Positions 20,256 to 36,313 of a stretch of DNA of 64,000 nucleotides are shown one piece after another; within the stretch, counting starts at the first letter, position 1, and each line of letters opens with the position of its first letter. A program made the position numbers and the translations under genes. Origin of the DNA: an uncultured bacterium (GTDB lineage Bacteria > Patescibacteriota > Minisyncoccia > Phycocordibacterales > GWA1-40-21); assembly GCA_903850545.1 (NCBI GenBank), contig CAINLW010000009.1, positions 2,311 through 66,310 of the forward strand, read 5' to 3'. The notes beneath the pieces are model-generated. The model worked only from the letters and a program-made list of their open reading frames with translations. It did not search any database and was not told where the DNA came from.

Positions 20256-20302
20256 TTTTTTAGTAGTTTTTTTATTTCAAATAATCTCATTATTTATTAA
20301 AA

Positions 20303-20350
20303 TAAAAAAAGTAGCCGCTTCTATTTGTGTAAACAAATAGAAGCGGCTAC
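20303..20350 (-). terminator. Rho-independent terminator (perfect 18-bp stem) after repeat-protein gene A
   Basis: gtagccgcttctatttgt-gtaa-acaaatagaagcggctac preceded on the plus strand by A7. Confidence 0.7.
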
Positions 20351-20365
20351 AATGTTTGTAGATAG

Positions 20366-21181
20366 TTATTTTTCCTCCTTATTATTAATTATTTGGGCCA
20401 TCCTCCTAATGGCATCGCAAGACTCTTGAGAATGATGTTCTGTTTTCTTGAAAACAAATAAACAATCTTTGACGTTTTCAGTAGTGATCAAAGCCTTTTT
20501 AATAGCACTGGACTTAACGATACTTTCATCCGGAGAATCTTTCCACACTTTCATGCATTCCTTGAATGTCGTGGCGACTTCAAGTCTAGACTCGAGTATT
20601 TCGTTTATTTTATGAAGGGCTTTCGCTTGAACAGCGTCACTATATGAATCCCGTAGAACTTCCATGTAATCCCCAAATGTTAAAGCAGTTTCTAGCTTTA
20701 CCTCAAGAAGTTTTTCAATTTTCTCTGACACTTTTAGTTCAATGCAGTTACATATTTGCCGATCATCATCACGATCAATAATCTTTTCACATTCTTTAAT
20801 GGTCGTTGCAAATGTTACAGCTTTTTCCAACAACGCTTTCTGGAAAATACTAACATCACAATCATCAAAGTCCGTGTCGCCATCATCATCACAAAAAATT
20901 AACATATCATAAATCTTCATACACCCCCTGAATGTCGTGGCGTCTTCAACCTCCTTTTTAATAAGCTCCTCAATCTTTTCCTGCGCTTTTTCATAGATAT
21001 TCCTATCAGCAATATCACAATACTTAATTTCCCGACATTCGTTAAGTGTCTTGGCATTTTCGAGTCTCAAGTAAAGATCTGCATGTTTTTTTTCAATGTT
21101 TCCCAATGCCGACTCCGCAAAATATGTTCCGCCGAGGCCTAGAATACTCGCGATTTTTTCCACCAATATTTTTCTGTCCAT
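20366..21181 (-). CDS. Repeat protein, paralog A (~45-aa alpha-helical repeats with A-T-T-F-x-E/G-C-x-K-[IV]-[WY] cores)
   Basis: Internal repeats DATTFRGCMKIYD / ALTFGDYMEVLRDSYSD / VATTFKECMKVWKDSPDE. AAGGAG Shine-Dalgarno 8 nt before ATG(21181). C-terminal CDAIRRMAQIINNKEEK parallels the paralog. Confidence 0.55.
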   Translation of the reverse strand: MDRKILVEKIASILGLGGTYFAESALGNIEKKHADLYLRLENAKTLNECREIKYCDIADRNIYEKAQEKIEELIKKEVEDATTFRGCMKIYDMLIFCDDDGDTDFDDCDVSIFQKALLEKAVTFATTIKECEKIIDRDDDRQICNCIELKVSEKIEKLLEVKLETALTFGDYMEVLRDSYSDAVQAKALHKINEILESRLEVATTFKECMKVWKDSPDESIVKSSAIKKALITTENVKDCLFVFKKTEHHSQESCDAIRRMAQIINNKEEK

Positions 21182-21261
21182 ATACTCGTCTCCTTTAACT
21201 ACAGTTTTTTTAAAGAACTATTTGTTCCAATCAATAATTAAGCATAATCTTTTGAATAAAT

Positions 21262-21288
21262 AAAAAAAGCGAGGATGCCCTCGGTAAA
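21262..21288 (-). promoter_or_regulatory. 27-nt element aaaaaagcgaggatgccctcggtaaaa, copy 1 (weak terminator-like hairpin or shared regulatory site)
   Basis: An identical copy lies at 22335-22361. Each sits ~75-80 nt upstream of a repeat-protein start codon. Confidence 0.4.
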
Positions 21289-21368
21289 ATAGATAATAAA
21301 AATGTCGCACTTGGGATAAAACCAAATGCGACATAAGATCACGTATAACAAATATTCTGCAGAATGAA

Positions 21369-22259
21369 TTATTTTACCTCCTTTCTTTCTATAATCCTTG
21401 CCATCTTTCTGATGACACGACACATTTGTGAACCCCCATCTATAAGTCCATAATTCTTATCCATAAGAATATCTGAGCATTCCTTTGCAGTTCTGGCGAC
21501 ATCAATGGCTCTGTTAGCAATCTTTTTTTGAAGCCATGTGGAATTACTCCCTTCGTCTAAGTCGAGGAGCATATCGTAAAGTTCTTTCATTGAGGCCTTC
21601 AGTAATGCTTTTTTCAAAGACTCACGCTCTATGTAGTCACAATAATCGGGGGAATCTTCATATATCTCCCAGTATTCCTCAGTACTGGTAGCCACCTTAA
21701 GTCTCTGCATGAGAAGTTTTTTTACTTTTTTTCGTGCCTTAAGCTTAATGCGAGGGTCAATACAACCACTAGAAACATCCTCACATTCCCCGACAGTTTT
21801 GGCTGTCTTTAGCTCTCTTCGCATAAGTTTATCCACCATTTCTTTAGCTTTTTGTTTGGTTTTGGTGTTAGCTAAAGGATGATCGCTGATCTCAGAATAC
21901 TCAGAATATCCGAACCAGTCGCCACGACCCTCTTTTGCAATTGTAACAAGTTTTAATTGAAGAAGTTCGTTGAGCTTTTTTCGTGCCATCCTTTTAATGT
22001 CAGTACCTTGGGAATTATAAAGACACTCGCATTCTTTAATTGTTTTTGTGGTCAATATAATTTTATCCAAGATTTTTTGTCTGATATCGCTACCTTTTGG
22101 AGAATATATGTAAACCTTATAGCAATCTCTGGGTGTCGTGGCACATTCGAGTCTCTCTTCTAGTTCGGTAATTGACATCAACCCTAGAGTAAACCTCACG
22201 CTACAAGAACTATTTTCACCGAGAATCTTGACGATTTTTGCCGACGTATCAGTATTCAT
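21369..22259 (-). CDS. Repeat protein, paralog B
   Basis: Start moved to MNTDTSAK (GGAGG Shine-Dalgarno 7 nt upstream; the listed ORF begins 20 codons earlier). Repeats CATTPRDCYKVYIYSPKGSD / VATSTEEYWEIYEDSPDY / VARTAKECSDIL. C-terminal CRVIRKMARIIERKEVK. Confidence 0.55.
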   Translation of the reverse strand: MNTDTSAKIVKILGENSSCSVRFTLGLMSITELEERLECATTPRDCYKVYIYSPKGSDIRQKILDKIILTTKTIKECECLYNSQGTDIKRMARKKLNELLQLKLVTIAKEGRGDWFGYSEYSEISDHPLANTKTKQKAKEMVDKLMRRELKTAKTVGECEDVSSGCIDPRIKLKARKKVKKLLMQRLKVATSTEEYWEIYEDSPDYCDYIERESLKKALLKASMKELYDMLLDLDEGSNSTWLQKKIANRAIDVARTAKECSDILMDKNYGLIDGGSQMCRVIRKMARIIERKEVK

Positions 22260-22334
22260 TTCATTATCCTCCGTTTTAATTTTAAAGACCAATATTTTCT
22301 CCATTCCATGAATAATCATAGTCGTTCTATAAAA

Positions 22335-22361
22335 TTAAAAAAGCGAGGATGCCCTCGGTAA
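22335..22361 (-). promoter_or_regulatory. 27-nt element aaaaaagcgaggatgccctcggtaaaa, copy 2
   Basis: Identical to 21262-21288. Confidence 0.4.
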
Positions 22362-22392
22362 AAATTTTAAAGCTTAATTTTTTTAAACTTAA

Positions 22393-23103
22393 CTAAATGT
22401 CGCTTTGAATATCCTCCCTGAAAAAATATTGAACAGACTTATTTGTTTTCTTTTTAAGATCCTTCAAAACAATTTTTATGCTTTTAATTGAATCAAATTT
22501 AGATGATTCGTTTTTAATTGCAATATTTATTGGCACCCACATATTATGTCCAAAATCTGTATCTTCTATTAATTTTCCTGAATATTTATTCGCGAAGGCA
22601 ATGACAAACAGGACGTCAGAGAAAAGTTCTCCAGATTTATACATAATTCTTCTTTCACATCCAAGAATTTTGAACTTCGCATCAAGTCCAGTTTCTTGCC
22701 TTAATTTTCTGCTAGCAGCATCTTCAAATAATTCTCCTTTAAGTACTACGCCACCCATGACCCCGACTTTTCCATATGAAGGATTAGATTTTCTAATTTG
22801 ATTTAATATTTCTAATTTTCCACCTACAGTTCTTGAAACAATAGTGATAACTTTAACACCAAACAAAGCATCCTCCAATTTGTTGCTTGTGTGGGGATCA
22901 GCTACATATTTCAAACCTTGAGCTGATAGATAGTATTTTGAGTTTTCTTTGGTCAATAACCCCTTTTTTACCAAATGCTGTAAATGATAATTAAATAAGT
23001 CGTTTGGCGTTCCCTGAGGATGCAAATCTGCGTATCTTAAAACATCAGCATTCTTAAGCTTGGAAATAATATAATCTTGGATTGGTGAAAGTTTAGATGT
23101 CAT
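22393..23103 (-). CDS. Winged-helix DNA-binding domain fused to a degenerate Nudix domain (NrtR-like regulator candidate)
   Basis: N-terminal helix-turn-helix-like region. Nudix-box remnant GGVVLKGELFEDAASRKLRQETGLD, in which the REUxEE glutamates are replaced (RKLRQE). Confidence 0.5.
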   Translation of the reverse strand: MTSKLSPIQDYIISKLKNADVLRYADLHPQGTPNDLFNYHLQHLVKKGLLTKENSKYYLSAQGLKYVADPHTSNKLEDALFGVKVITIVSRTVGGKLEILNQIRKSNPSYGKVGVMGGVVLKGELFEDAASRKLRQETGLDAKFKILGCERRIMYKSGELFSDVLFVIAFANKYSGKLIEDTDFGHNMWVPINIAIKNESSKFDSIKSIKIVLKDLKKKTNKSVQYFFREDIQSDI

Positions 23104-23253
23104 GTATTTAAAGAATATACTTTATTTTGAGGAAAATGACAAAGAGTCTGTAGCGTTCTTATTTAATCAAGGTCTGTTTTTAAAGTTACTATTTTGTTTA
23201 TAATTTCTATTAACTGCTTGCTCCACCACAATATTTCATGATACCGTATTAAT

Positions 23254-23922
23254 ATGACAGTGTATGATAAACCACAACCGAAATCAGATGCTCTTGATCA
23301 TATTCGTATAGCAGTAGCCTTGATTCCTACAGAGCCTCTTTTTTCTAATATTATTGAGGCCAGTCAAGCTATAACTCGCCAATTTCAGAATTTTAACATT
23401 ATTGATAAAAATGTTTTTCCTCCTCATGCGTGCCTACATATTTGCACCATATCCAAAGACAAATTGCCACATTTCCTAAAAATAATTAATCAATTGTCCA
23501 ATACAACTTTCCCAATTTTTGATCCATCTATACTAATCAAGGGATCAACGGGCTACATCTCTTTTCAATTAAATATTTCCCCATTGATTCGTTCACTTCA
23601 CGAGAGTGTGTTATCAGCCGCTTTGACTGTTCGGGGAGATGACTATCAGGAAGACCCCGCTCGTTTAGCTCGCCTTTCGGTAGCTGACAGATTGAGCTTT
23701 CAGAAATATGGCAATCGTTTTATCTTCGACAAGTTCAATTTACACATATCCATTGCAAAGGTTGCGCAAGAACATCAAGATGAGGCTTTTGAAATCGCCA
23801 AAACGATCTTAAGCACACCTAAGGCAACGCCCGCAGCTGCTATTCAAGTTTGCGACATCGGAATGCGGAGCGAAAAATGGATCGTTTTATATAGTAAGAA
23901 AATGCAGGGAAAACGTCATTAA
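23254..23922 (+). CDS. 2H-phosphoesterase-like (LigT-like) protein, tentative
   Basis: Two H-x-[ST/C]-x-like motifs about 100 aa apart (PHACLHICTI and NLHISIAKV). GC content above the local average. Confidence 0.3.
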   Translation: MTVYDKPQPKSDALDHIRIAVALIPTEPLFSNIIEASQAITRQFQNFNIIDKNVFPPHACLHICTISKDKLPHFLKIINQLSNTTFPIFDPSILIKGSTGYISFQLNISPLIRSLHESVLSAALTVRGDDYQEDPARLARLSVADRLSFQKYGNRFIFDKFNLHISIAKVAQEHQDEAFEIAKTILSTPKATPAAAIQVCDIGMRSEKWIVLYSKKMQGKRH

Positions 23923-25238
23923 TTTAAATATATAGTTTTATCTTTCAAACTTATTTTACTTTTTAAACATCCCAGTAGTTCTCTCTTTTCTATATCTTTT
24001 CCTTCTCTAAGAATATATTTCGCATAATTTTTAATATCTATATCGGCTATTAGTATTTTTTCATTATTTCCGAGTATCATGTGATTAAATTTTTTGATTT
24101 CTTCAACTTTCGCTTTTATCTTCTCTTTTATTCCAATTTCATCTATATCAATTTTTTCAATTAGGGTTTCAAATTGTTTTATTAGATCTATTTCGTTTAT
24201 ATAACCTCCTTTGCAATTCCTGTCTCTTACCCTGGTACAGCTATAATAGACATGCCTGTGAATATTGCCGTTTTTTTGTTTTTTAAACTTTTCATCTGCT
24301 GTAATTCCAGATCCACAAAGTCCACAAGTCATTAATTTGGTAAAAGCAAATTCCTTACTTTCTGATTTAATAATCTGACTTTTTACTTGATTTTGTACTT
24401 GATCAAACAGTTCTTTGGTAATAAGTGGTTCATGTTTACCCGTATAGAAATTTCCACTTTTTAGTGGATATTCGAAAACTCCATAATAATACGGGTTTCC
24501 TAAAAGTTGATATATATTTCCGAAACTTAATCCTTTGTTACTTTTTACACTTTTGAAATTAATCTCAAACTTCAACCAATTATAGATTTTGTGACCACTC
24601 CATTTCTCATACGCCACCTTTTCAAACATTTTCTTGATTACCGGAGCTCGTTGATGATCAATTACTACGTATCCTTTTCTATCAACCCTTTTTTCGTTCA
24701 AATATCCTACTGGTGGAGGTCCTGGTCTTAATCCCATTTCACATTTAGTTCTTAACCCACGTTTTACATTTACTGATTTATTATCATTTTCTAATTTTGC
24801 TTGAGAACATAAAATCATTAATAAGAACTTTTCGTTTGGTGAATTTATAAATGATTGTCCATAAGTTCTTATTTGTAAAAGTAGTTTCTGATCCATTAAA
24901 TCAACAAGTGATCCAAGATCGCCAGCGTTTCTAGAAAGCCTATCTGGTGCCCAAGTAAGTATTCCGTTAAATCTTTCTTTTCTTATATCTTCAAGTATTT
25001 CTTTAAATATGGGTCTTTGTCCTGAATCTTTAGCTGAATGAGACTCTCTCCTTATATCAATAATCTCAAGTCCTTCTTTTTCAGCCAGTTCAAGCATTTC
25101 TTTTACTTGGGATTCTATAGATAAGATTTGGCGCTCCTCAGATTCTGTACTTTTTCTAGCATATAAACAATATTTAATCTTTGCGGTTGGTATTACAACC
25201 CTTGTACCAATCAAAGCGTTTGTCGCCTGTATTTCCAT
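23919..25238 (-). CDS. Large serine recombinase (resolvase/invertase catalytic domain + recombinase domain + Zn-ribbon)
   Basis: YCLYARKSTESEERQ..SIESQ catalytic-serine region. C-terminal Cys pairs (CGLCGS..CTRVRDRNCKGG). Confidence 0.8.
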   Translation of the reverse strand: MEIQATNALIGTRVVIPTAKIKYCLYARKSTESEERQILSIESQVKEMLELAEKEGLEIIDIRRESHSAKDSGQRPIFKEILEDIRKERFNGILTWAPDRLSRNAGDLGSLVDLMDQKLLLQIRTYGQSFINSPNEKFLLMILCSQAKLENDNKSVNVKRGLRTKCEMGLRPGPPPVGYLNEKRVDRKGYVVIDHQRAPVIKKMFEKVAYEKWSGHKIYNWLKFEINFKSVKSNKGLSFGNIYQLLGNPYYYGVFEYPLKSGNFYTGKHEPLITKELFDQVQNQVKSQIIKSESKEFAFTKLMTCGLCGSGITADEKFKKQKNGNIHRHVYYSCTRVRDRNCKGGYINEIDLIKQFETLIEKIDIDEIGIKEKIKAKVEEIKKFNHMILGNNEKILIADIDIKNYAKYILREGKDIEKRELLGCLKSKISLKDKTIYLN

Positions 25239-25424
25239 GTATTAATGGTGTCAGAGATAGTGTCTTTTGCTAAGCGATAGCTTGTTGGCAACTTTTCTTA
25301 GCAGAATAACTAATTAGCGATATGATCAAGGTAGATTAATAATTTAAAAAGAGTTATTATGTGTAGGACAACTAAATAAGAAGTAGCCTAAACCAGTAGT
25401 AATACTGGCATGGTGAAAGTAAGT

Positions 25425-25510
25425 CCGTTGAAGATAAAAAACCCATCATGTGGGATTTGTCTTCAACGGCCGTATCTGGAAACAGGTATGGAGGGTTCAA
25501 ACCCTCACTC
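25425..25510 (+). other. Structured region upstream of the recombinase: a 10-bp perfect inverted repeat plus a tRNA T-arm-like hairpin; candidate attachment site
   Basis: ccgttgaaga..tcttcaacgg (25425-25469). gaggg-TTCAAAC-ccctc (25491-25506) fits the TPsiC arm consensus, but no complete tRNA could be folded. Confidence 0.3.
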
Positions 25511-25570
25511 ACGTGATGGGCTTTTTGTTTTTCATCACTGGGTTTTAATAACAATTAATAATCTAATGAT

Positions 25571-26206
25571 ATGAAAATTCTCAGAAATATTTTGGGTATA
25601 GGTATCGGTCTTGTTTCTATTGGTTTGTTATTTAGTAAACCAATTTCAGGTATCGTAGGTCTTATTTTTGCAATAAGCTTTTTACCAAAAACGTGGTCTT
25701 ATCTTTCTAAGAAATATAATTTAAATATTCCTAAGCTCTATAAAATATTAATCGTTGTTGTATTACTTTTTGTTTTCTTTAGTCTTTTACCTCAATCAGC
25801 ACCTCAAGTCCAAAATGTTATTAACAATGAAGCTAGTTCAACTACAAATATAATTGATAAAGAAAAAACACAAAGTCTAAATGGTGGTATTAAGTTTAGT
25901 CTTGATAAGGATTACGGATTCGGTGTCATCACTGTTACAAACAAAGATAGCTTTGATTGGAAAGATTGTGTCTTTTCAGTTCCTCTTGCAAAAACTAATC
26001 CTCTTACAATATTAAAAGGAGATTATATGCCTATAACAGCATCTGATTTCTTTAATGATCCTGAGTTTAATAATGGTGGAAAACAAATGACTATGGATGA
26101 TGGCACTTTCAGAAATATAGGAGGTGCTATTAATGTCCAGTGCAGTAATGGTCAAAGCTCAATTGATAATGTTGCTAAAAATTTTAGTAATATAACTGTA
26201 AAATAA
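25571..26206 (+). CDS. Secreted/membrane-anchored hypothetical protein
   Basis: N-terminal hydrophobic segments. Thr/Asn-rich. Confidence 0.4.
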   Translation: MKILRNILGIGIGLVSIGLLFSKPISGIVGLIFAISFLPKTWSYLSKKYNLNIPKLYKILIVVVLLFVFFSLLPQSAPQVQNVINNEASSTTNIIDKEKTQSLNGGIKFSLDKDYGFGVITVTNKDSFDWKDCVFSVPLAKTNPLTILKGDYMPITASDFFNDPEFNNGGKQMTMDDGTFRNIGGAINVQCSNGQSSIDNVAKNFSNITVK

Positions 26207-26210
26207 AATT

Positions 26211-26927
26211 ATGAAAAAAAAGATAATAGTTCTATCTTTCTTTTCACTCCTTATGATAGGGGGTGCTTCAACCGTATTCGCTATTTATGGTATCCAAACA
26301 AAAATAATTAATTGTGTCGCTAACCAAACTTTACAAGACCCTGCTTGCACTCCAGGAGCAGTTTTAACGACGAGTACAACTACAATTTGTAAAACTGGTT
26401 ATACAACAACGGTTCGTGACGTTTCAGTAGCTACCAAAAAGAAAGTTTTTAAGGAATATGGCATTGATTATTCTTTACATTCAAATTATGAAGTTGATCA
26501 TCTAATCAGCCTTGAGCTTGGAGGAAGTAATGATATATCGAATCTTTTTCCCGAGTCATATTTGATTAAAGATAATGCCAGAATAAAAGATAAACTAGAA
26601 AACTATTTGCATAGTAAAGTTTGCAGTGGAAAAATGTCTATCACCGAAGCTCAAAAAGAAATATCAACCAATTGGCTTTATTATTACGATCTTTATTACA
26701 ATGTAAAAGTCGCAACAACTTCAAAAAGCGTTTTACCTGCGACAACTACTTCTATTGTTCCCACCAAATCAATAGCCACATCTTCTACAAATTTTCCCTC
26801 AGTAAAGAAAAGTTTAACTGGTCTTTGCCATGCTTTAGGCACAAGATATTATACTCAGACTTTAAATTACACAGGTTACAATTCGATTGGCGCTTGTTTG
26901 GCAAGTGGAGGAAAATTACCGAAATAA
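26211..26927 (+). CDS. Secreted HNH-family nuclease
   Basis: Signal-peptide-like N-terminus. HNH signature YEVDHLISLELGGSNDISNLFPE. Confidence 0.6.
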   Translation: MKKKIIVLSFFSLLMIGGASTVFAIYGIQTKIINCVANQTLQDPACTPGAVLTTSTTTICKTGYTTTVRDVSVATKKKVFKEYGIDYSLHSNYEVDHLISLELGGSNDISNLFPESYLIKDNARIKDKLENYLHSKVCSGKMSITEAQKEISTNWLYYYDLYYNVKVATTSKSVLPATTTSIVPTKSIATSSTNFPSVKKSLTGLCHALGTRYYTQTLNYTGYNSIGACLASGGKLPK

Positions 26928-26928
26928 A

Positions 26929-28455
26929 TTATCTAAAAAACGGTTTCCAATTTGCTCCAGTAATACCCATAGCTTGGTCAAGATCACTCTCATTAGTATG
27001 ATGATTACTATGATAAATATAACTAATGGATGGTGTACTTTTTGAATCCTCAAACATTTGTAAGATAAGCATTGTCGTGGCGTCAACCAAATCGTCATGC
27101 TTTTCTTTTCCGAAACCCAATATTTGTTCCACTAACTCCTCATTACCTTTATCAGCAAAAACTACACGTCCAAGTTCAATTAAAGCAGAAACAGCCATAA
27201 GTCGATCCTCTTTACTCCAACCTCTTACTGGAAATGGTCTGGCTGGTATTCCCTCAGCCCTTAAGAGATCTGTGATAATTCCTTGGAAGTTTACATCTTC
27301 AACATACACTCGGGAATATGATCCATTATCAGGATTTCGTGAAAGACTTTTAACTCTGCTGATTATTTGGTCAGTAGTTAACCTCGCATTTACTGGATTT
27401 GGTAAAATGTACAATTTTCTATCTTTTCCTGAACCATAGATTTTACCCGAAACCATAGCTGTGTAATCTGCGCCAGCCTTTTGTGATCTTGCAGGGTCAA
27501 TTGAAAGAGCACTGAATCTTAGACTTACTCCAACAGGCAGTTCAGAATAGTGGTGAATATGTTCTCTCTTAATAATCTGATAATCGTTATCGACGATTCT
27601 TAACATATACTCTCTTTGCCAAGTTAGGTCACTAAAACATTTTGATTTTTCATCATCTATATCTTTTTGTGTTTTAAATTTGCCAGGCCAAAGTGGTACA
27701 TTATTTTCATCAATAATTGGAAATTTTCTGAAAACATTTCTTGGATCATTGTTTTGAAAGAATTTTTCCATTCTCATGAGTGTCGAATCGTTGTGCAAGG
27801 GCGTGCCGATGAAAACAAGTTGAGTGTTTCTTTCACCTGCGGGTATGACATCACCTGTTAGCCAGTCATACATTTTATCTCTGTTTTCTTGTGTTCGTAC
27901 TGAATCCGAATCTTCTATATCGTCAGCGATGATCAAGTCTGGTCTATGCTGAAAATGCCTTATACCTCGAATATTTTGCCCAATAGAGCGAGTTGAAATA
28001 TTAGCTCCATATTGAGGAAGAAGAATAGACTGTGTTCCTTCCTGATCGACTTCTTCTTTGAATGGTCCGAAGTCACGTCTAAAGTCATCATTTTCTTCCA
28101 ATTCCTTTTTTATATCGGTAAGGTGTATCTGAGTACTTAGTTGTGTGTGACCTAGAATAAGGATAAACTTTTTCTGCTTTACGCCGACAATTGACCAGAT
28201 GACATACGAAAGAGTGATAATGGTGCTTTTGGCGCTACCCCTAAAAGCGGTAATAACGATATTACGAAGATCAGGATTTTCCGTGAGGTTGAAAATTTCT
28301 CTGTGGAAATCCGCAGTTGGAAATTCTGCATACTTTCTACCGAAGTAATAATGGAAAAACCAATAATGGCTTTTCCTTACCATTGCTAGACGGAATGTTT
28401 TATCTTTAATCATCTGATCGATAATATATTCCTCACTAGGATTTAGGTTGTTCAT
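26929..28455 (-). CDS. Phage terminase large subunit
   Basis: ATPase motif ITAFRGSAKST. Terminase-like length and C-terminal nuclease-like region. Overlaps the upstream small subunit by 20 nt. Confidence 0.75.
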   Translation of the reverse strand: MNNLNPSEEYIIDQMIKDKTFRLAMVRKSHYWFFHYYFGRKYAEFPTADFHREIFNLTENPDLRNIVITAFRGSAKSTIITLSYVIWSIVGVKQKKFILILGHTQLSTQIHLTDIKKELEENDDFRRDFGPFKEEVDQEGTQSILLPQYGANISTRSIGQNIRGIRHFQHRPDLIIADDIEDSDSVRTQENRDKMYDWLTGDVIPAGERNTQLVFIGTPLHNDSTLMRMEKFFQNNDPRNVFRKFPIIDENNVPLWPGKFKTQKDIDDEKSKCFSDLTWQREYMLRIVDNDYQIIKREHIHHYSELPVGVSLRFSALSIDPARSQKAGADYTAMVSGKIYGSGKDRKLYILPNPVNARLTTDQIISRVKSLSRNPDNGSYSRVYVEDVNFQGIITDLLRAEGIPARPFPVRGWSKEDRLMAVSALIELGRVVFADKGNEELVEQILGFGKEKHDDLVDATTMLILQMFEDSKSTPSISYIYHSNHHTNESDLDQAMGITGANWKPFFR

Positions 28456-28846
28456 TTGAGTTTTGATTATTATTTGGTAATGCTAGACGGAGGGCTTCAC
28501 GAAGTAATTTTTCTTGCTCTGGATCGAGGATTTCTTTTTCGTTTTTTATCGTTCCTACTATCTCAACCTTTTCTTTGAATTTTGGATTTCGATGCCTTAA
28601 CCAAAAAGAAAGGGCATTCCAATTTTTTTCTTTTATAAGTGTGAGCAGTTGGCTTTCGGAAATGTCATTGATTAAGGCTTCACCGTCGGCTAATGCTTCT
28701 TCCATATCTTTTGCAAATTCCTTATCTGTATTTTTCCACCTATACAAGCTGACTCTAGATATTGCTACTTTTTCACAGGCAACCTCAATAATCGGAATTT
28801 TTCTTAACTCTACCAGAAACTGATTTTTTACTTTATTCTTTTTCAT
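28436..28846 (-). CDS. Phage terminase small subunit-like helix-turn-helix protein
   Basis: ISRVSLYRWKN helix-turn-helix. Position immediately upstream of the terminase large subunit. Confidence 0.45.
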   Translation of the reverse strand: MKKNKVKNQFLVELRKIPIIEVACEKVAISRVSLYRWKNTDKEFAKDMEEALADGEALINDISESQLLTLIKEKNWNALSFWLRHRNPKFKEKVEIVGTIKNEKEILDPEQEKLLREALRLALPNNNQNSNEQPKS

Positions 28847-30122
28847 AGTAGTTGTGAATTATTTTTGCTTGTTTTCCTGTGAGTTTTAAAAATCTTCTTA
28901 TGGCTAAGTCGATATATATTGGCTGAAGCTCTAGACCATAAACTTTTCTTCTGAGTTGCTCTGCCGAAATTAATGAGCTTGCGGACCCGAGGAAGCTATC
29001 TAATATAATATCTCCGACCTTTGTACATCTTCTGATAATTTTTGAATATAAATTCGTTGGTTTGGAAGTTGCATGTTCCATTTCTTTGCCAGATAATCTT
29101 CTAACCGCCCAGACGTTGAGACAATCAAGGACTTGATCAAACATATCGTTTCCAGTCGTCATGTCCCCATTCATTACCTCATTGAGATTTTGAATGTTTG
29201 GAGCGATATATGGATGACCTCGAAGCCCGTAGGTACAAGGTTCATAGCACTTTGAAAAAGCAATACCTGGGGTCGGGTTTTGTGACTGCTTCAACCATAG
29301 ACACACTCTTTTGTTTTGTATTCCAAAACTTCTATATAATTCTTGTATAAAACCAATATAGATTTGGTCTGAAAAATAAAAGAAATTAACATCATACTTA
29401 GATACAGATAATGCTCCTGCCATGCTTTTTCTAAGGAATTCTTTATATTCAGTGTCGGTTCTATTATCGAGGACTTCACCGCCATAATTTTTTGATCCAC
29501 CTAATCCAGATTTGTAGTTATAATTTATATTGTAGATTGGATCTGAACATACCATTGACGCTTTTTCTTTTCCGAAAAGTTTTTTAACAGCCTCAGCATC
29601 CGTGCTATCTGCACACAAAATTTTATGATCTCCTAATATGACGAGATCACCAAGTTTTGTTTGTGGAATTTTAATTTTGGCTAACTCAATTTTTTCGTCA
29701 AAGTTATCATCCTCAGTTTTTAACTCATCTCCCCAAACTTTTGAAAGATCTATATCACTTAAACCAATGTCAGACAGCAAATCCATCTTAAAATCTTTTA
29801 ATTTTTCAAAATTCCATTGCCCATCATTTAAATTACTTTCGAGACCAATTTTTCTTCTTTCGTCTTCAGAAAGTTTGCGACTTGGGACAAGCACATTAAC
29901 CTCTTTTATCTTTAATTTCATAAGCGCAACCTTCCTTTGGTTGCCAGATAAAATTGTGTTATCTGCATCAATAACAATTACAGCATGAAAACCATGCTGT
30001 TTAATTCTATCCACTAGTCTAGCCATGTCCGGTTTTGTAATCCTGCGAGGATTCGCTTTCCAAACGACTAGTTCTTCGACCTTCCTAACTTCTGCGTGCC
30101 AAACTAATTTTTGTTGAGACAT
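28833..30122 (-). CDS. ParB-like nuclease domain fused to a DNA methyltransferase (N4/N6 type)
   Basis: N-terminal ParB-like region. SDPIYN (DPPY-like) and ILDSFLGSASS (SAM-binding) motifs. Confidence 0.65.
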   Translation of the reverse strand: MSQQKLVWHAEVRKVEELVVWKANPRRITKPDMARLVDRIKQHGFHAVIVIDADNTILSGNQRKVALMKLKIKEVNVLVPSRKLSEDERRKIGLESNLNDGQWNFEKLKDFKMDLLSDIGLSDIDLSKVWGDELKTEDDNFDEKIELAKIKIPQTKLGDLVILGDHKILCADSTDAEAVKKLFGKEKASMVCSDPIYNINYNYKSGLGGSKNYGGEVLDNRTDTEYKEFLRKSMAGALSVSKYDVNFFYFSDQIYIGFIQELYRSFGIQNKRVCLWLKQSQNPTPGIAFSKCYEPCTYGLRGHPYIAPNIQNLNEVMNGDMTTGNDMFDQVLDCLNVWAVRRLSGKEMEHATSKPTNLYSKIIRRCTKVGDIILDSFLGSASSLISAEQLRRKVYGLELQPIYIDLAIRRFLKLTGKQAKIIHNYYEKE

Positions 30123-30216
30123 AAATTTTATTTATGATTAATTAATAAAGTCGTGATTTCTCACGACCCTATTAAACACCATAAAAATAAATAGTTTGGA
30201 AAAAATTGGTCCAGAA

Positions 30217-30954
30217 TTATCCAAAAAGCTTCTTACGCATTTTATCTAAACTTCTTTTAGCATCATATACTTGTTGTGATTTTTTTCTGGATCCAAAATG
30301 TTCCTCGGCGAGGTCTCTCGCTGTTATTTTTTCGGTATATTTTTCTCTATCTTTTTGCCAATTCTCAAACGTAAGCCGTTTAATTGTAGCCTTTGTTATT
30401 TTGTTGATTTTTGGAAAATCCTTCGTCCTTTCTTTAATTAAACGCAGTAAGGATAACTGTTCATTTTTTGTAAGCCTAGAATATATTTCTATTTTTGCTA
30501 CGCGTTCTGTTTTTATATCCCATAGGTATGAAAAATTATCAGTAGGTATAAAATCAAATTTATTGTGAAGGATATATCGTCTTATAACACTGACAAGGTG
30601 AGAAGGTAAATTAAAATTATCTATAACATAATTACTAGCGTCAGTTAGAATATTTGCATGAAGATTTTCTCTGAGGAGTAGATTTAGTTGTTTATTTGCC
30701 ATATTTCGATCTAATTCACCAGATTTCATTTTTTCTCTTAGATACTGATTGTGTCTTTTGTAGTTTTTCGAGTTCAGATATTCACGATCTTTTTCCTCCC
30801 AATAATTTATCCATCTTTCGACTTCTTCATTTTTTGAAAAACCTGATTCAGGTATCTTTAAAAGAATCCGTATTGATTTTATGTAAACCTGAAACTTATC
30901 ATGACCGATTAATAGAGTTAGAAGTTGGACGTTGTTAGATTTGTTAATCATCAT
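30217..30954 (-). CDS. Hypothetical protein (first gene of the packaging-module transcription unit)
   Basis: 245-aa basic protein. No motif recognised. Confidence 0.35.
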   Translation of the reverse strand: MMINKSNNVQLLTLLIGHDKFQVYIKSIRILLKIPESGFSKNEEVERWINYWEEKDREYLNSKNYKRHNQYLREKMKSGELDRNMANKQLNLLLRENLHANILTDASNYVIDNFNLPSHLVSVIRRYILHNKFDFIPTDNFSYLWDIKTERVAKIEIYSRLTKNEQLSLLRLIKERTKDFPKINKITKATIKRLTFENWQKDREKYTEKITARDLAEEHFGSRKKSQQVYDAKRSLDKMRKKLFG

Positions 30955-31034
30955 TGTATTATATCCTAAAAATCCTTTGAAATATAGTAAAAATATGTTA
31001 TAATAATTATATAAAATGTTTTATTTGTATTAAT

Positions 31035-32573
31035 ATGGATCAAACAGAAATATCTATGGAAACGAGTAACAACCAACAAGGCAGTCAATCTACAAAGGGA
31101 GTATATTTTTCTGAGATTTTTGGTGTTCAACACTCAATTATTGAAAAATATGGAGCACTGGATATATCGCTTGTTTGTGACAATCCAGCTTTTGTGGATC
31201 CCTTTCTTATCTTCGCAAATCCTAAATATAGTAAGCTTCATGAATATATAATTAATTATCTTAAATTTTTAAAAGATCTTTCTTCAAAGAATAAAGGAAA
31301 TATACTAAGTGTGGGTGACTTTAAACATTATTATAAATTCCCCGAAGTTAAACAGGTATGGCTTGGTTATTCGCTTAGTGGTAATGGTGGTTTGGGTCTA
31401 GGTATAGAGTTTGCTAGGTCTCTTTATAAAAATTTAAATGAAATATTTTCTGAATTTGGTGACGAAGATATAACAGAAACGGCGCACTTAGAGAAACTGT
31501 GTTTAGTAGAAGATGGCATAGGAGTTGATAAGATTAGTGATTTTACTTTAAATCTAATAAAAATATTTATTCTTGAATATACTCAAGAATTTGCTGAAAA
31601 TTTTTTGGATAAAAAATTCCTATCTGTTTTTGCTGTAAAGAAGACGAGTTTTGATTTTACAAATCAGATTTGGCAGGACGGTTCCTTCAATCTGCCCTCA
31701 ATAGAAATAAATGGGAAAAAACAGTTCGTATTACTTGTTCCAAAAAATATTATAACGAAACACGATAATTGGATTTCAAAAAATGATTTTCTAAATAATG
31801 ATACCTCCATTTTTAATACCATAGAAAATGATGAGTTAAGGACAAAAATTAACAAGTATTTTCTTGATAATCTTTTGACAAAATTTAATAGAGAAAAAAA
31901 GATCGTGAAAGACTTCTCGAGAAAAAGTAAAGTAGTAGCTTTGTCGAAAACCGTTGCGGAGTTTCCTGAGACGCTAGATTACTATATTAGATTCAAAGAA
32001 AACAGAAAAGCTGAAGCATTATTGTCACATGTGGCCAATCCAGAAGAAATTAACCATTTTTTTGATACCTCCATCTTACAGGGTGAATTAGGCGTAAAAA
32101 AGTTTGAAAAGATGTCTTCGTTTGATGATTGTGTTTCTAGAATAGCCTTTTTCAAGAACACCCTAGAATCTAACAGTAAAAAGTTATACATAAAGGATAA
32201 GCCGTTGGAAGAAAAACAACTTCAATTAATGTTCAAGATGGTTACTTTTGATAGTTTGTTTAATTATGATTCCGAAGTAAATAACGGAAGAGGTCCAATT
32301 GATTTTATAATTTCTTATGGAAGTGGTGATAAGACAGGTCTAGAACTTAAGCTAGCTTCAAACACAAAACTAAAAAAGAATCTTAAAAACCAAGGTGTTG
32401 TTTACACTAAAGATTCAAATCTAAAACATGTCATAAAAATAATTTTCTTTTTCTCCGATAAAGAATTGGAAAGAGTGAACAAAATCTTTAAGGAATTGGA
32501 CAAGGTGGTTGATAATAATGAGTTTTTTCTAATTGATTGTCGTAAAAAAGATTCTGGATCAAACCAGGAATAA
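31035..32573 (+). CDS. Hypothetical 512-aa protein with a C-terminal PD-(D/E)xK-like motif
   Basis: GRGPIDFIISYGSGDKTGLELKLASN (D..ExK pattern) near the C-terminus. First gene of a tight four-gene cassette. Confidence 0.4.
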   Translation: MDQTEISMETSNNQQGSQSTKGVYFSEIFGVQHSIIEKYGALDISLVCDNPAFVDPFLIFANPKYSKLHEYIINYLKFLKDLSSKNKGNILSVGDFKHYYKFPEVKQVWLGYSLSGNGGLGLGIEFARSLYKNLNEIFSEFGDEDITETAHLEKLCLVEDGIGVDKISDFTLNLIKIFILEYTQEFAENFLDKKFLSVFAVKKTSFDFTNQIWQDGSFNLPSIEINGKKQFVLLVPKNIITKHDNWISKNDFLNNDTSIFNTIENDELRTKINKYFLDNLLTKFNREKKIVKDFSRKSKVVALSKTVAEFPETLDYYIRFKENRKAEALLSHVANPEEINHFFDTSILQGELGVKKFEKMSSFDDCVSRIAFFKNTLESNSKKLYIKDKPLEEKQLQLMFKMVTFDSLFNYDSEVNNGRGPIDFIISYGSGDKTGLELKLASNTKLKKNLKNQGVVYTKDSNLKHVIKIIFFFSDKELERVNKIFKELDKVVDNNEFFLIDCRKKDSGSNQE

Positions 32574-32611
32574 GGAACTGGAAAAGATTATAACTAATTT
32601 TTAGGAAAAAT

Positions 32612-33679
32612 ATGGAAAAACATCTCAAACCATATCAATACTACTCGGACTTGTACGACAAATACACTGTTGAAAGGTGTCGTAATCTGGAGAAAATTGA
32701 TAATGACATAAAATTGCCAGAGGATAAAATCACAAAAGAAAAGCAACAACATTTTAAAAAAGCTTTTTCCAAACTTCACATGTACTTTGAAACAGGAGAA
32801 GATTACCTAGGGAAATCCAAGAGGATAAACGAATGGATGGAAAGAGATAAAAAATACGATGAATTATATGAGCAGGCAAAAGCCCCAGAAAATATCACAT
32901 GTTTATCTTGTGGTCGTTTGATGTTTGTTGAATCGAAACATCTTGATTTTGCAAATAATGACAAAAGAGATCGGGTGATGTTCTTTTATGATTGCCCCCT
33001 AAAACATAAACCGATGCGTGTTTTTTACGATGACGGGGAAGAATATAGGGTCAAACCCCACATTTGTCCAAAATGTAGTTCATCTTTTAGCGAAGAATCA
33101 AAAAAAGAAAAAGATATAATCTATATTACTTATACTTGTTCGAAATGCGGTTTTATCGAAAAAACTGATTTAGACCTGACTATTAAAGAAGAAAAAATTG
33201 ATCTAGATTTTATTAAAGATCGTAATCGTTTCTGCTTATCTGAAGCCGACGGGCAAAAATATATGGAAGCCAAAGTAAACATAGAGAATCTCAGCAAAAT
33301 AATGGATAAATATAAAGAAAAAGAGAAAAATAAGAATTTATATGATAAGGTGGCGAAACTAAAAAAATTAAAAATTATAGAATTAGAAAAACTACTTACT
33401 CCTATACTTGAATCGGCAAATTATGTTAAGCTCCAATTTCAAACTCCGCAGGTAAGCAAGGATGTTTTTGTCCCATTCATAGTTTATGATTCCAAGAGTG
33501 AACGCTCCGAATACGATAGTAAACATAATCTACAAAAACTCTTAAAAACAAAACTAGAGGATACTAACTGGCGTTTGATGAGTGATGGAGTTAATTATCG
33601 CTTAGGTATGCTTGAGTGGCGTTTAAGAGCTTATGAGCGTGAGGAAGATTTGATTAAGCTAATTGAAGATATAAAATAA
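32612..33679 (+). CDS. Hypothetical Zn-ribbon protein
   Basis: Three CxxC pairs (CLSCG, CPKC, CSKCG). Confidence 0.4.
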   Translation: MEKHLKPYQYYSDLYDKYTVERCRNLEKIDNDIKLPEDKITKEKQQHFKKAFSKLHMYFETGEDYLGKSKRINEWMERDKKYDELYEQAKAPENITCLSCGRLMFVESKHLDFANNDKRDRVMFFYDCPLKHKPMRVFYDDGEEYRVKPHICPKCSSSFSEESKKEKDIIYITYTCSKCGFIEKTDLDLTIKEEKIDLDFIKDRNRFCLSEADGQKYMEAKVNIENLSKIMDKYKEKEKNKNLYDKVAKLKKLKIIELEKLLTPILESANYVKLQFQTPQVSKDVFVPFIVYDSKSERSEYDSKHNLQKLLKTKLEDTNWRLMSDGVNYRLGMLEWRLRAYEREEDLIKLIEDIK

Positions 33680-33687
33680 ACAAATCA

Positions 33688-34479
33688 ATGAACATAAAAA
33701 AGTTTCCCAACCCAAAATTAAATTTACCAAAGGATTTGAAAAAGAAAGCTAAAGAAGACCCCGCTTTATTTTTTAAGTATGTAGATAATTATATTAATTT
33801 AGTTGGTAAATACATTTATACAGATATTAATCTTGACTATCAACCAGTGGACGATAATCACATCCATGCTTGGATACAACGAATAGTGAGTGCAAATCTG
33901 TTAAGAAGTCTATATATTCGTAATGAATTTGTAGAGACGATAAATACTAGAAATTTCGTTGGAATGTTTTTACCACTCAAGGCGTGGTTTGAAATAGTTG
34001 GTGTTCTAGCATCAATTCTAGATTTACTAGAGAAAAAATTGTCGAAAGAAGATTTAAGAGAAAAATTAGAACCATATTGCTTAGGGAACAGAGGGATAAC
34101 AAAAATTGGTGAAGTTGAGTCAATAAATGTTTTAACCATGATAAATAAAGCCAACCGATATCTTGAAAAAATGCAAAAAGAAGTTCAAAATAAAGATAAG
34201 GCATCTCCTGAAACTTTTTTTACCAGTTTTTATGATACAGCAAGTAATCCATCACACCCAAGTTTTGATTCTATGGAAATGGTGGGTTTTCTAGATGAAG
34301 AAAGTGGAACTTGGCGCGCCGAATTGCCAGATAATATAAAAGAAAAAATCGTCACGAGTATTGATGGCTACGGTGGATTACTAATGTCACCACTATTTAT
34401 TGAAAATATTTGTCAAAAAATTTTTCTAATAGAAAAAGACAAATTTTTTAAACTAAAAAGTAAAAAGTATTTTGATTAA
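33688..34479 (+). CDS. Hypothetical protein
   Basis: 263 aa. 8-nt gap from the previous gene. Confidence 0.4.
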   Translation: MNIKKFPNPKLNLPKDLKKKAKEDPALFFKYVDNYINLVGKYIYTDINLDYQPVDDNHIHAWIQRIVSANLLRSLYIRNEFVETINTRNFVGMFLPLKAWFEIVGVLASILDLLEKKLSKEDLREKLEPYCLGNRGITKIGEVESINVLTMINKANRYLEKMQKEVQNKDKASPETFFTSFYDTASNPSHPSFDSMEMVGFLDEESGTWRAELPDNIKEKIVTSIDGYGGLLMSPLFIENICQKIFLIEKDKFFKLKSKKYFD

Positions 34480-34496
34480 TTTATCAAATTAAAACA

Positions 34497-34898
34497 ATGT
34501 TTAATGCCACAACTACACCAATACCAGATTTTACAAAAGAAATGGTTACCCAGATTATTCAAGCATTTGATAAGTTACCATTACAAACCGCTAATATCAT
34601 CTGGTCTATTTTTATTTCAATCTTAAAAGCAGATTGGCCTATTTTATTACTAATACTTTTTATAATTGTTTTAGTCGCGACTCTTAAGATGATGATTGGC
34701 CACTGGGGTATGTTTGGTAGTGTTATTTATAATATCTTGTATTTTGGAGTGCTATTAATTATAGGTCTATTTAAGGGCCCAGAGGTTTTTGTAAGTGATT
34801 TTTATAAGCCATTTTGTCTGATAATACTTTACCCCTTGTGTTATTGGATTACTGGATCAATACTAGATTTGGTTAGAAATAGATTTGGGCGAAGATAA
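34497..34898 (+). CDS. Small multi-pass membrane protein
   Basis: 133 aa with about 3 hydrophobic segments. Confidence 0.4.
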   Translation: MFNATTTPIPDFTKEMVTQIIQAFDKLPLQTANIIWSIFISILKADWPILLLILFIIVLVATLKMMIGHWGMFGSVIYNILYFGVLLIIGLFKGPEVFVSDFYKPFCLIILYPLCYWITGSILDLVRNRFGRR

Positions 34899-34899
34899 A

Positions 34900-35338
34900 A
34901 AGTTACACTCAACTGTAACTTTTTAGATCAATCCTGTGTTACTTTTGTAACTATTTAAATAGCTCTTGTCGCGTCGTTTTGATACACTTAAAAGCGTCAA
35001 AATGACCTTGTGGGGCTTGGCCGACCACGGCTCTGTCTCTAGTCGCTCAGCATTAAGTTTAAGTGGTCTGTTTTGGAAAAAATATTCGCGTCGCTACGCG
35101 ACTGTAACAACGTTTCTGCGAGAATTTGCCACGGCATTTTGAAATCCACAGAAATCGAACAGTACGTGTATATATGATTTTGTGAAAAAGATTCCTGACA
35201 TCGTTTTCTGATTAATTAAGTATATTTTGACTTTCAAGCTAAAATGTGACACTATCGAAATTAGGTCTGAAGAATTTAAAAATCAGATAATATCTGCACT
35301 TTAAAAAAACAATCAGTAATATTAAGGAGGAGGGAGAA
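34900..35338 (+). other. GC-rich structured leader/intergenic island in front of a GC-rich gene
   Basis: Helices gtcgttttga..tcaaaatgac and cgcgtcgc-tac-gcgacg. Ends in a perfect Shine-Dalgarno sequence AAGGAGGAGGGAG. Confidence 0.3.
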
Positions 35339-36313
35339 ATGAACGATAATAAGATACACTTCAGTAACGTGCCGTTTATGGCATATGTCGAGAGCATGGG
35401 AGACGAATTGATAGAATGTACTCCAGTGGTATACGGCGATGGACTCAACTATGGCATCAGTGTGTTATTTCCCAACATGGAAAGTATCACATGGGGTCTG
35501 GTGACACCCAGAAACCTCATCACTGCATGGCGTGGGACAGAAATACTGCGTCATATCCACACCATCGAGAACGGAACACTCTGCGCAGCCTACTACACGG
35601 GTATACGCAGTCCTCACGAGAGTGATATGAAGTCGTACGTGGAACCGATCATCAAAAAAATTGGTCGGGATGTGTACGACACAATCATGTCAATGACCGT
35701 ACCCGAACAAATAATAAGGGCAATACTCGACAATCAGAATGGTGATTCCAAACCTGATCTTTACCCGATAACTGACGAAGTACGGGCGGGAACCATCGAG
35801 TGGCGACAAGAGTTCGTCGAATTCGGGATCAAGCACCCTGATGATGTCGATAACGAAGAGAGGTTGCAGAAAGAGACAATCGCTAAATTCGAACGCCTAC
35901 TGGCTTCCTATGCAAGATCGAGAAGTATACCGAGAAACTGTATGGGTATGAATTACGTCGAGAGTGCTCTATTGACTCTCGTCGACAAGAAAGCCAACGA
36001 GGAACATTCGGATAACGTACTTATCGCTCTCTCAGGTGTCGTCGGCGAACTAAGTATAACGAACTTCGCAGCATTTATATTACCGTTTGGCATTAGTAAT
36101 CAGGCGGAATATGATGCACGAATTAACAAAACCAAGGAGGAAGCACTTGAGTATTCGGCGTCGTGGCTGGCTTCAATTTCTAAACCACCGTGGTTTAGTT
36201 TTCTTAGAAAGAAAGAGACTGTCTCATTCACCTCAGAAAATGCAACGAAGTTGCTCAGAGAATTACTTGAAAAGTATTTTCCCAGAAGGAAAAAGTTAGT
36301 TACTTTTGTGTAG
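35339..36313 (+). CDS. Hypothetical protein encoded by a compositionally atypical (higher-GC) gene
   Basis: 324 aa. Strong Shine-Dalgarno sequence. Codon usage is visibly richer in G/C-ending codons than neighbouring genes. Confidence 0.5.
   Translation: MNDNKIHFSNVPFMAYVESMGDELIECTPVVYGDGLNYGISVLFPNMESITWGLVTPRNLITAWRGTEILRHIHTIENGTLCAAYYTGIRSPHESDMKSYVEPIIKKIGRDVYDTIMSMTVPEQIIRAILDNQNGDSKPDLYPITDEVRAGTIEWRQEFVEFGIKHPDDVDNEERLQKETIAKFERLLASYARSRSIPRNCMGMNYVESALLTLVDKKANEEHSDNVLIALSGVVGELSITNFAAFILPFGISNQAEYDARINKTKEEALEYSASWLASISKPPWFSFLRKKETVSFTSENATKLLRELLEKYFPRRKKLVTFV

Follow-up and report, generated by a model that had tools for sequence, protein, structure and literature searches.

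The 64,000-nt stretch analysed in this study (hereafter the window; contig CAINLW010000009.1 of an uncultured patescibacterium, with positions counted from the first letter of the stretch) contains at ~23.9–30.2 kb the backbone of a small genetic element, made up of a gene for a large serine recombinase (LSR), a structured RNA of the LOOT family (Rfam RF03000) and an operon in the order ParB-methyltransferase, TerS and TerL, with swappable accessory slots between and beside them. The element recurs in at least about a hundred species, mostly Patescibacteria, and LOOT was met with at ~200 loci, again mostly of this group. The interpretation favoured, at about an even chance, is a compact integrative island of a recurrent kind, which may be a phage satellite and in which LOOT acts as a leader or small RNA (sRNA) at the slot for cargo genes. 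What was observed in the sequences compared is the identity of the RNA, the recurrence of the backbone, the presence of variable slots, the placing of LOOT in the manner of a leader, and an additional helix; the island is not a complete tailed prophage.

LOOT was identified with cmscan at 25385–25506 (plus strand) as a match over the full model (1–121) with four hairpins, at 85.6 bits (E 9e-15) against a gathering score of 46.4. Our own covariance model (R1) gave 119.7 bits and a single copy in the window, and the folding z-score of this copy was −6.3. An earlier note on this DNA had described a perfect 10-bp inverted repeat and, next to it, a hairpin resembling the T-arm of a tRNA, which was taken for the 3′ piece of a tRNA duplicated by integration. 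The repeat (CCGTTGAAGA/TCTTCAACGG, 25425–25434 and 25460–25469) was found as described and is the base of LOOT hairpin 2. The second hairpin also lies where it had been placed, at 25491–25506, as GAGGG-TTCAAA-CCCTC with a loop of 6 nt instead of 7, and is hairpin 4; since both belong to one LOOT RNA, the interpretation as a tRNA remnant or attachment (att) site had to be given up. Neither the matching tRNA nor the direct repeats by which the note had hoped to delimit the element turned up. ARAGORN and Rfam detected no tRNA at 25.2–25.6 kb; the sole tRNA of the window according to ARAGORN is a tRNA-Gln at 14939–15012, and its 3′ end had no second copy in the window, even with three mismatches allowed. 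It is tyrosine integrases that target tRNA genes.

Stem P1 of the RNA holds an invariant CCUAAAC/GCAUGG internal loop, and hairpin 3 is capped by a GAAA tetraloop, which is invariant in part through ascertainment. In a model-based alignment of 98 sequences, 92.4% of the cells of the whole structure were paired, compared with ~40% when the partners were slid, and compensatory changes were seen in all 11 pairs of hairpin 2, in five of the eight pairs of hairpin 3 and in all six of hairpin 4. No homology of LOOT in sequence or structure to any Rfam riboswitch class was found.

Beyond the end of the Rfam model a 3′ extension was recognised (25507–25533, plus strand), which contains the 3′ strand of a long-range helix (25510–25526) and a terminator-like U-tract, UUUUUGUUUUU. 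The 5′ strand of this helix, an A-run followed by CCCAUCAUGUG, is located at 25437–25452, within the apex of hairpin 2 and in its 5′ half. The helix comprises 16 pairs, 12 of which showed compensatory changes among the 98 sequences, with 90.7% of the cells paired versus ~40% for a slid partner; its columns had been fitted to no structure beforehand. The median energy of the duplex between apex and tail was −23 kcal/mol, as compared with −9.5 for shuffled tails and −12 for tails taken from random other members. In 96% of the sequences the long-range helix and a local apical hairpin use the same nucleotides, so that the two are mutually exclusive alternatives. The T-run and the G following it were nearly invariant in 141 sequences, which is not independent evidence, the loci having been selected and trimmed by a T-run-then-G filter. 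The helix itself is demonstrated by covariation; together with the U-tract it looks like an intrinsic terminator, a function predicted from the sequence.

LOOT was reportedly introduced among candidate structured RNAs by Weinberg et al. in 2017. The family is listed in Rfam 14 and 15 and is typed there as sRNA. In the literature searched it occurs only in the Rfam papers, as a metagenome-derived sRNA family without function or genomic context, and the searches returned nothing tying LOOT, serine recombinases and elements of Patescibacteria together; the genomic context and the 3′ helix appear to be previously undescribed. The RNA of the window agrees with RF03000 as known in its full model match, four hairpins and tetraloops. 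New are the wide occurrence in Patescibacteria, the linkage to LSR and terminase genes, the place ~40 nt before co-oriented genes for exported proteins, and the covarying 3′ helix with its U-tract.

A search for further loci with a first, loose DNA pattern gave mostly chance matches and group I introns, and this pattern was discarded. A specific pattern recovered five true loci of LOOT from IMG/VR; species-representative genomes yielded at least 120, and metagenomes likewise at least 120. The covariance model upheld 97 of the 99 genome loci tested. Among the matches listed, the genome loci were mostly from metagenome-assembled genomes of Patescibacteria, with four labelled Gammaproteobacteria/Pseudomonadales and about a dozen unclassified. 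LOOT was present twice in some genomes and also occurred on viral contigs; the isolated phages of INPHARED gave no match.

The recombinase gene next to LOOT (23919–25238, minus strand, 439 aa) and the minus-strand packaging unit beyond the cargo had been named in the earlier note, and both were confirmed. Three Pfam domains of the LSR scored above threshold (Resolvase, 3e-19; Recombinase, 1e-11; Zn_ribbon_recom, 2e-7), phrog_95 (integrase) was matched at 7e-59, catalytic-type YARKST and DRLSR motifs were present, and the nearest solved relatives were SPbeta YokA/SprA and the TP901-1 integrase. The packaging unit consists of an open reading frame (ORF) of 245 aa at 30217–30954, a ParB-like N-terminal domain fused to an N6/N4 DNA methyltransferase at 28833–30122, a small DNA-binding protein resembling TerS at 28436–28846 (136 aa) and the terminase large subunit TerL at 26929–28455 (508 aa), all on the minus strand. 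The methyltransferase gene is the first of the methyltransferase-TerS-TerL operon, and its product matched Pfam N6_N4_Mtase (7e-20), phrog_498 (4e-71) and, over residues 10–156, the ParB-like phrog_620 (5e-19). TerL matched phrog_38 (1e-81) over residues 17–480 and was 25–29% identical to TerL of Mu-like and other phages. The assignment of TerS was drawn solely from PHROG matches of ~1e-8, namely to phrog_4044, phrog_4102 and phrog_309 (terminase small subunit) at 4e-8 to 4e-6; a match to HTH_Tnp_1_2 was below threshold. The 245-aa ORF, which has its own terminator hairpin at ~30150–30170, matched nothing in the family libraries searched, its AlphaFold model was unusable (pLDDT 45), and among the loci listed a homologue was found in just one other; it is probably variable cargo and not backbone.

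The absence of portal, capsid and tail genes was equally borne out, as no portal, capsid, tail or lysis family was matched with Pfam or PHROG in the window between 17 and 44 kb. A secreted HNH nuclease had further been proposed at 26211–26927 (plus strand), and this stood in part: the translation of the gene, here called accessory gene 2, shows a clear signal peptide and an EVDH...GG...N motif, while the Pfam match to HNH was below threshold (E 0.013; 16.1 bits against 21.4), so that the motif is given as a possible one. The C-terminus of the product matched phrog_37565.

The linkage of these genes to LOOT was scored with blastp among the loci listed, and LSR homologues were found in 102 of 199 of them. 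The recombinase gene was located upstream of LOOT and divergent from it in 72 of 121 loci with at least 2 kb of upstream sequence, in 56/80 with at least 4 kb and in 34/43 with at least 6 kb; in no locus was it upstream on the same strand. Homologues of TerL, TerS and the ParB-methyltransferase were counted in 24, 37 and 44 loci, respectively, and where at least 5 kb of downstream sequence was available, one of the three lay downstream on the opposite strand, convergent with LOOT, in 16 of 49 loci. When ascertainment was made independent of LOOT, by retrieval through LSR homology, six of nine viral contigs carried the RNA. The gene order of the window, with the LSR gene divergent from LOOT and its cargo, and TerL, TerS and methyltransferase genes reading towards them, was kept in 15 of 15 close relatives. 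In a second architecture (type II, three islands), LOOT and its cargo are divergent from methyltransferase, TerS, TerL and LSR genes reading in this order away from them; LOOT there adjoins the methyltransferase operon and not the LSR gene, and heads the cargo as well. TerS and methyltransferase were kept without TerL in four loci. The same reduced gene set with full-length ORFs was present in dozens of species at 35–72% protein identity, and in the relatives examined a portal gene never followed TerL, nor were structural genes found in any of them.

Variable slots were recognised by the points at which nucleotide similarity between related islands breaks off. These are the 3′ end of the LSR gene, a position 50–102 nt upstream of LOOT, the 3′ end of LOOT (+146 to +177), the 3′ end of TerL and the 5′ end of the methyltransferase gene. 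Two loci of a single metagenome-assembled genome (L173 and L176) share only the promoter region of LOOT, LOOT and its cargo. At the level of strains, the window and a metagenome scaffold (L001) agree throughout 20297–31005 (100% identity over 10.7 kb), after which the scaffold continues with a different ORF (MATKTKLPVANAKEQ..., L001:1-218); the breakpoint at 31005, directly after a promoter-like TTGAAA-N16-TATAAT (30975–31005, plus strand; recognised by sequence), is a further variable slot in which strain-level gene replacement has taken place. Cargo and flanks of relatives include type I restriction-modification genes, PLD-SNF2 together with an Eco57I methylase, Gabija-like OLD accompanied by UvrD, a LexA-C5 methylase and a reverse transcriptase. 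An integron-like cassette array was considered and rejected, as the cargo genes abut with no repeated sites between them. Five short metagenome contigs that match the left flank stop inside the LSR gene, at 23961, 23981, 24244, 24458 and 25102, which suggests population heterogeneity or assembly breaks induced by repeats.

In the window the cargo slot downstream of LOOT is occupied by two plus-strand genes. Accessory gene 1 (25571–26206, 211 aa) begins 38 nt past the U-tract. It gave no significant family match; a weak match to Wzy_C below threshold suggests that the product might be located in the membrane. Among the loci listed homologues were found in two LOOT loci only, for which reason the gene is regarded as variable cargo. 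Homologues of accessory gene 2 were found in four of these loci, in one of which (L290) the copy stands on the other side of the LSR gene.

The position of LOOT relative to such genes is highly regular. The first sizeable ORF after the RNA was co-oriented with it in 163 of 170 distinct loci, at a median distance of 42 nt from the U-tract (38 nt in the window) and of no more than 45 nt in 115 of 161 loci. The encoded proteins belong to many unrelated families; an N-terminal hydrophobic segment was predicted in 126 of the 161 (78%), compared with 25% of background ORFs. In a subgroup of four loci a conserved hairpin of 9 bp, GCGTCTTAT...ATAAGACGC, is made up by the gap of 42–45 nt between U-tract and start codon itself; a YAGGGTTAT motif is common to other members in this gap.

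The region between the LSR gene and LOOT (25239–25384) has the appearance of a divergent control region. An alignment of 15 relatives displayed conserved blocks in it, related islands regain their similarity within it at 50–102 nt before LOOT, one consensus promoter match precedes LOOT (TTAGCA-17-TATGAT, 25298–25326, plus strand), and an inverted repeat, TTTTGCTAAG/CTTAGCAGAA, is located at 25265–25306. The spacing between the two genes in 21 loci where they are adjacent was 54–431 nt (median 163, mostly ~135–185), with 147 nt in the window. The dyad, conserved in relatives as TTTTGCTAAG ... CTTAGCA(A/G)AA upstream of the LSR start with GTTGG(C/T)AAC-type repeats between its arms, could be an operator, a hairpin of the 5′-untranslated region of the LSR gene or a recombinase binding site.

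On the basis of these data the following mode of action is proposed for the island. The recombinase would integrate and excise it. LOOT would have a promoter region of its own and be transcribed away from the recombinase gene, and its four hairpins would be held together by the GAAA tetraloop and the receptor-like CCUAAAC/GCAUGG loop. The RNA would end in the long-range helix and U-tract, acting as an intrinsic terminator, and LOOT could thus be both a stable RNA of ~145 nt and an attenuating leader, in which read-through into the genes of exported accessory proteins would depend on which of the two forms, the apical hairpin or the terminator helix. Because the island encodes neither capsid nor tail nor lysis proteins, packaging in the capsids of a helper phage is proposed by analogy, with TerS (together with TerL) and the methyltransferase as the putative agents. 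For LOOT itself, an attenuating leader or sRNA at the head of an accessory-gene slot is the best reading of the sequence data: by computation, a structured domain precedes the ORFs in the same orientation, and the 5′ strand of the terminator-like stem is alternatively paired within LOOT.

The likening of the internal loop of LOOT to the 11-nt tetraloop receptor is an assumption of ours. The LOOT-invariant 5′ module GCCUAAACC...GGCAUGG was also encountered in group I introns of five viral contigs, one of which (L020) has three introns and another (L048) an intron inside a tRNA-rich stretch with 14 tRNA matches over ~4.7 kb. The occurrence of the same loop in group I introns fits such a role, and suggests that the CCUAAAC/GCAUGG loop is a tetraloop-receptor-type module.

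A bolder version, which was considered rather unlikely, would make LOOT a new class of cis-regulatory RNA, a sensor folded by tetraloop and receptor that responds to a small molecule, a protein or a cue of helper infection and, through the choice between hairpin and terminator, switches on exported anti-phage or surface-remodelling proteins; the island would then be a new kind of satellite with a serine recombinase and terminase genes only, of which none is known to have been described in the phylum. LOOT has been an orphan since 2017, known just from metagenome fragments, and the defined genetic context makes its function testable. The mobile elements of Patescibacteria and their interactions with phages are poorly known, and in these ultra-small, mostly uncultured bacteria the island, if correctly interpreted, would be the first integrative platform to be described that is satellite-like or carries defence genes. 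The recombinases form a large and diverse LSR set with a recognisable genomic landmark, which could aid the finding of att sites.

Comparison with known systems places the RNA and the island between several of them. Temperate phages carry membrane proteins for superinfection exclusion beside integrase and repressor genes, as well as modules such as lambda cI-rexAB, and the c-di-GMP-I (GEMM) riboswitch precedes diverse genes for membrane and secreted proteins and occurs in phages. LOOT shares with c-di-GMP-I and like terminating riboswitches a compact fold, a GNRA tetraloop with a receptor-like loop, a position upstream of diverse co-oriented genes, a terminator-like end and competing pairings. 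It differs in that the 5′ strand of the terminator lies in the middle of the RNA, which makes the "terminator loop" ~57 nt of folded RNA, and in having no known ligand. Similarly to the accessory genes of lysogeny modules (superinfection exclusion; lambda cI-rexAB), genes for exported or membrane proteins and for defence stand by the integrase, under a promoter divergent from it; in the island, however, a structured RNA takes the position of the repressor gene, and no protein repressor was identified.

With the satellites SaPI/PICI, PICMI and cf-PICI the island has in common an integrase, its own small terminase, the lack of tail and lysis genes, a small size and the carriage of defence and accessory genes in hotspots. 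It differs from PICI satellites by a serine instead of a tyrosine recombinase, by the lack of a detectable Stl/AlpA-like regulatory or replication module and by a conserved structured RNA in the backbone. The island usually has TerL without capsid genes, whereas PICI have TerS only and cf-PICI a full capsid set. The three-domain recombinase is the same as in SPbeta (SprA/YokA), TP901-1, A118 and SCC with Ccr, and as in SCC it is borne on a small platform with variable cargo. Unlike SPbeta and TP901-1, the island has no structural genes, and unlike SCC it contains terminase and RNA genes; its attB and attP were not identified.

As regards LOOT, the chief competitor is a stand-alone trans-acting sRNA, for example of a protein-binding or immunity type, in which the 3′ helix serves for termination only, a separate promoter drives the downstream genes and co-orientation reflects the organisation of the slot. 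This was judged somewhat unlikely. It agrees with the Rfam type, and the discoverers of the family are said to have taken the same view; the compact, tetraloop-rich fold, the very stable terminator-like helix with its conserved U-tract and the sharing of LOOT plus cargo as a unit by L173 and L176 of one genome are as expected for it, and the TTTTTG end with the gap of ~42 nt could form a −35-to-ATG unit for mRNAs with short leaders. On the other hand, the co-orientation in 163 of 170 loci and the gaps of no more than 45 nt in 115 of 161 leave scant room for a separate promoter and leader, the exclusivity of apical hairpin and terminator helix is the layout of an attenuator, and a long, variable, single-stranded loop for pairing with a target is lacking in LOOT. 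A role of LOOT or its flanks as a recombination site, either as a host gene targeted by the LSR or with the inverted repeat between the LSR gene and LOOT as attP, attL or attR, was regarded as very unlikely. The tight LSR–LOOT linkage (~135–185 nt in most of the 21 adjacent loci), the conserved ~42 bp that immediately precede the LSR gene and contain the dyad TTTTGCTAAG...CTTAGCA and the similarity breakpoints on both sides of LOOT would suit it. Against it, backbone genes stand on both sides of LOOT in both architectures, which places the RNA inside the island; LOOT is intact and unsplit, occurs twice in some genomes and on viral contigs, lies beside the methyltransferase operon and not the LSR gene in type II islands, and neither partial copies nor flanking repeats were found. 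An obligatory cofactor or guide of the LSR was also considered for LOOT and rejected, given close islands without LOOT and the type II arrangement.

As regards the island, the proposal of the earlier note that it is a truncated prophage or satellite-like island held insofar as the region comes from a phage and is without structural genes; since the backbone recurs intact, the region is no isolated remnant. A decaying prophage, that is, a formerly complete temperate phage from a Patescibacteria host whose structural genes have been lost, with the other genes drifting as remnants and the RNA left behind as a phage sRNA, is for this reason improbable. The lack of portal, capsid, tail and lysis genes, the clearly phage-derived TerL, the failure to find att sites in the window and two relatives, and a relative (L384) with a split LSR gene and a split DUF8370 gene, by which decay is seen to occur, speak in favour of it. 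The recurrence of the same intact reduced set across dozens of species argues for selection on this set instead of independent decay, and portal genes were never seen after TerL in relatives; cargo turnover at defined breakpoints, also between strains, indicates an active platform. The note had further held that conserved chromosomal neighbours in relatives, together with a lack of direct repeats and of a tRNA match, would speak against a mobile element; the repeats and the tRNA match were indeed lacking and the genes do neighbour each other in relatives, but their surroundings vary. All findings can be reconciled with a satellite-like island that has retained packaging specificity. All in all, the earlier observation was largely real and its tRNA/att interpretation wrong, and the satellite-like island is plausible and now placed in a family. 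Quite doubtful as well is the view that ParB-methyltransferase, TerS and TerL form a domesticated or defensive module, for example one blocking the packaging of invading phages, which rides on an LSR island. The islands carry defence genes and sit among them, no capsid genes or pac site were identified, and four loci have TerS and methyltransferase without TerL. Yet packaging-hijacking satellites (SaPI, PICI, PICMI), which the island resembles, have as their known signature TerS next to an integrase, accompanied or not by TerL, in the absence of capsid genes. The computed evidence does not separate the defensive module from the satellite.

Several observations weigh against the interpretation as an integrative, satellite-like island headed by a leader RNA. 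Neither the backbone nor the flanks gave a match to any family expected of a replication module (primase or rep gene with ori) or of a master repressor, although ORFs without matches could hide one. Direct or inverted repeats between the candidate ends did not exceed shuffled controls in the window and two relatives, a weak negative since LSR att sites share only ~2 bp. An empty site was not encountered in contigs with the exact 2H phosphoesterase protein of the left flank (see below), its 59% homologue, the 245-aa ORF or DUF8370 homologues, which offered collinear fragments or unrelated contexts only, and none of 55 whole contigs was circular or terminally redundant. LOOT is missing from four close islands and is thus not essential to the backbone. 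The packaging analogy would call for a helper phage, and none is known. For the leader function, the terminator-like helix is very stable (~−23 kcal/mol) and LOOT may simply be a stand-alone sRNA; the TTTTTG end and the gap of ~42 nt could house a promoter for cargo mRNAs with short leaders; and Shine-Dalgarno sequences were not enriched before the cargo ORFs (8 of 161 versus 8.7 expected), which gave no help in fixing the start sites. Finally, the LOOT loci were ascertained by a sequence pattern and a tail filter, so that the invariance of the motifs, T-run and G among them, is in part built in by the selection and divergent members may have escaped, and the ORFs of relatives were called mechanically and compared by blastp in loci many of which are short.

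A tRNA gene adjoins a relative of the island in one case. On a viral contig (L122) that belongs to the subgroup with the hairpin in the cargo gap, a tRNA gene is located at 12735–12806, ~750 nt past the 3′ end of the LSR gene, and this is the only hint in the family of an island end next to a tRNA.

On the left, the island is bordered by a gene for a 2H phosphoesterase family protein of 222 aa (23254–23922, plus strand), which is oriented towards the LSR gene, the stop codon of which it overlaps by 4 nt. The protein is full length in comparison with homologues of 191–220 aa containing PF13563 or PF06299, and a split attB gene was rejected on these grounds. The gene is a flank or accessory gene. 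Its closest homologue (59%) was found between genes for a TraG/VirD4-like coupling protein and a TIR-domain protein, with a relaxase nearby, and this location ties the 2H phosphoesterase gene itself to mobile and defence contexts.

In the variable slot on the right, a gene at 31035–32573 (plus strand) encodes a DUF8370/DUF8371 protein, for which 990 homologues with PF28123 and PF28130 at 50–77% identity were found, as well as a PADLOC match to PDC-M36A (4e-17). Relatives of the gene adjoin EcoRI-type and Eco57I-type methylases, a Methylase_S-like gene, GmrSD and Bro-N, and a DUF8370 gene also lies beside the decayed LSR island of L384. The protein looks like a candidate defence or restriction-modification-associated component. 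A reading of 31035–36313 as portal and capsid genes was rejected, as no sequence matches in Pfam, PHROG or PDB were obtained and the first gene is that of the DUF8370/DUF8371 protein (PDC-M36A).

The surroundings are chromosomal. With G+C of ~32% across the window, the genes on the left-hand side include purA, Ham1, G6PD, 6PGD and the tRNA-Gln, and those on the right-hand side an ABC-F ATPase, a U32 peptidase and ORFs of the size of rpoB and rpoC. The G+C content peaks at 35001–36000 (0.43) and 45001–46000 (0.45), compared with ~0.32 for the window, with no Rfam family in either peak; the first of them coincides with an ORF at 35339–36313, itself without a family match. A Bro-N protein is encoded at 41839–42711, between the genes of the U32 peptidase and an M23 peptidase; it matched phrog_8036 over nearly its full length (1e-78), which may point to phage or mobile DNA at a second place in the window. 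In one of the relatives (L379) the DUF8370 gene has a Bro-N gene as its neighbour.

To the left of the island, two tandem paralogues without assigned function (20366–21181 and 21369–22319) share 33% identity over 84 aa. An 84-nt repeat that contains a GC-rich hairpin, GCGAGGATGCCCTCG, is present at the 5′ end of each of them and just upstream (20366–22363), and a 34-nt motif occurs five times inside the paralogues.

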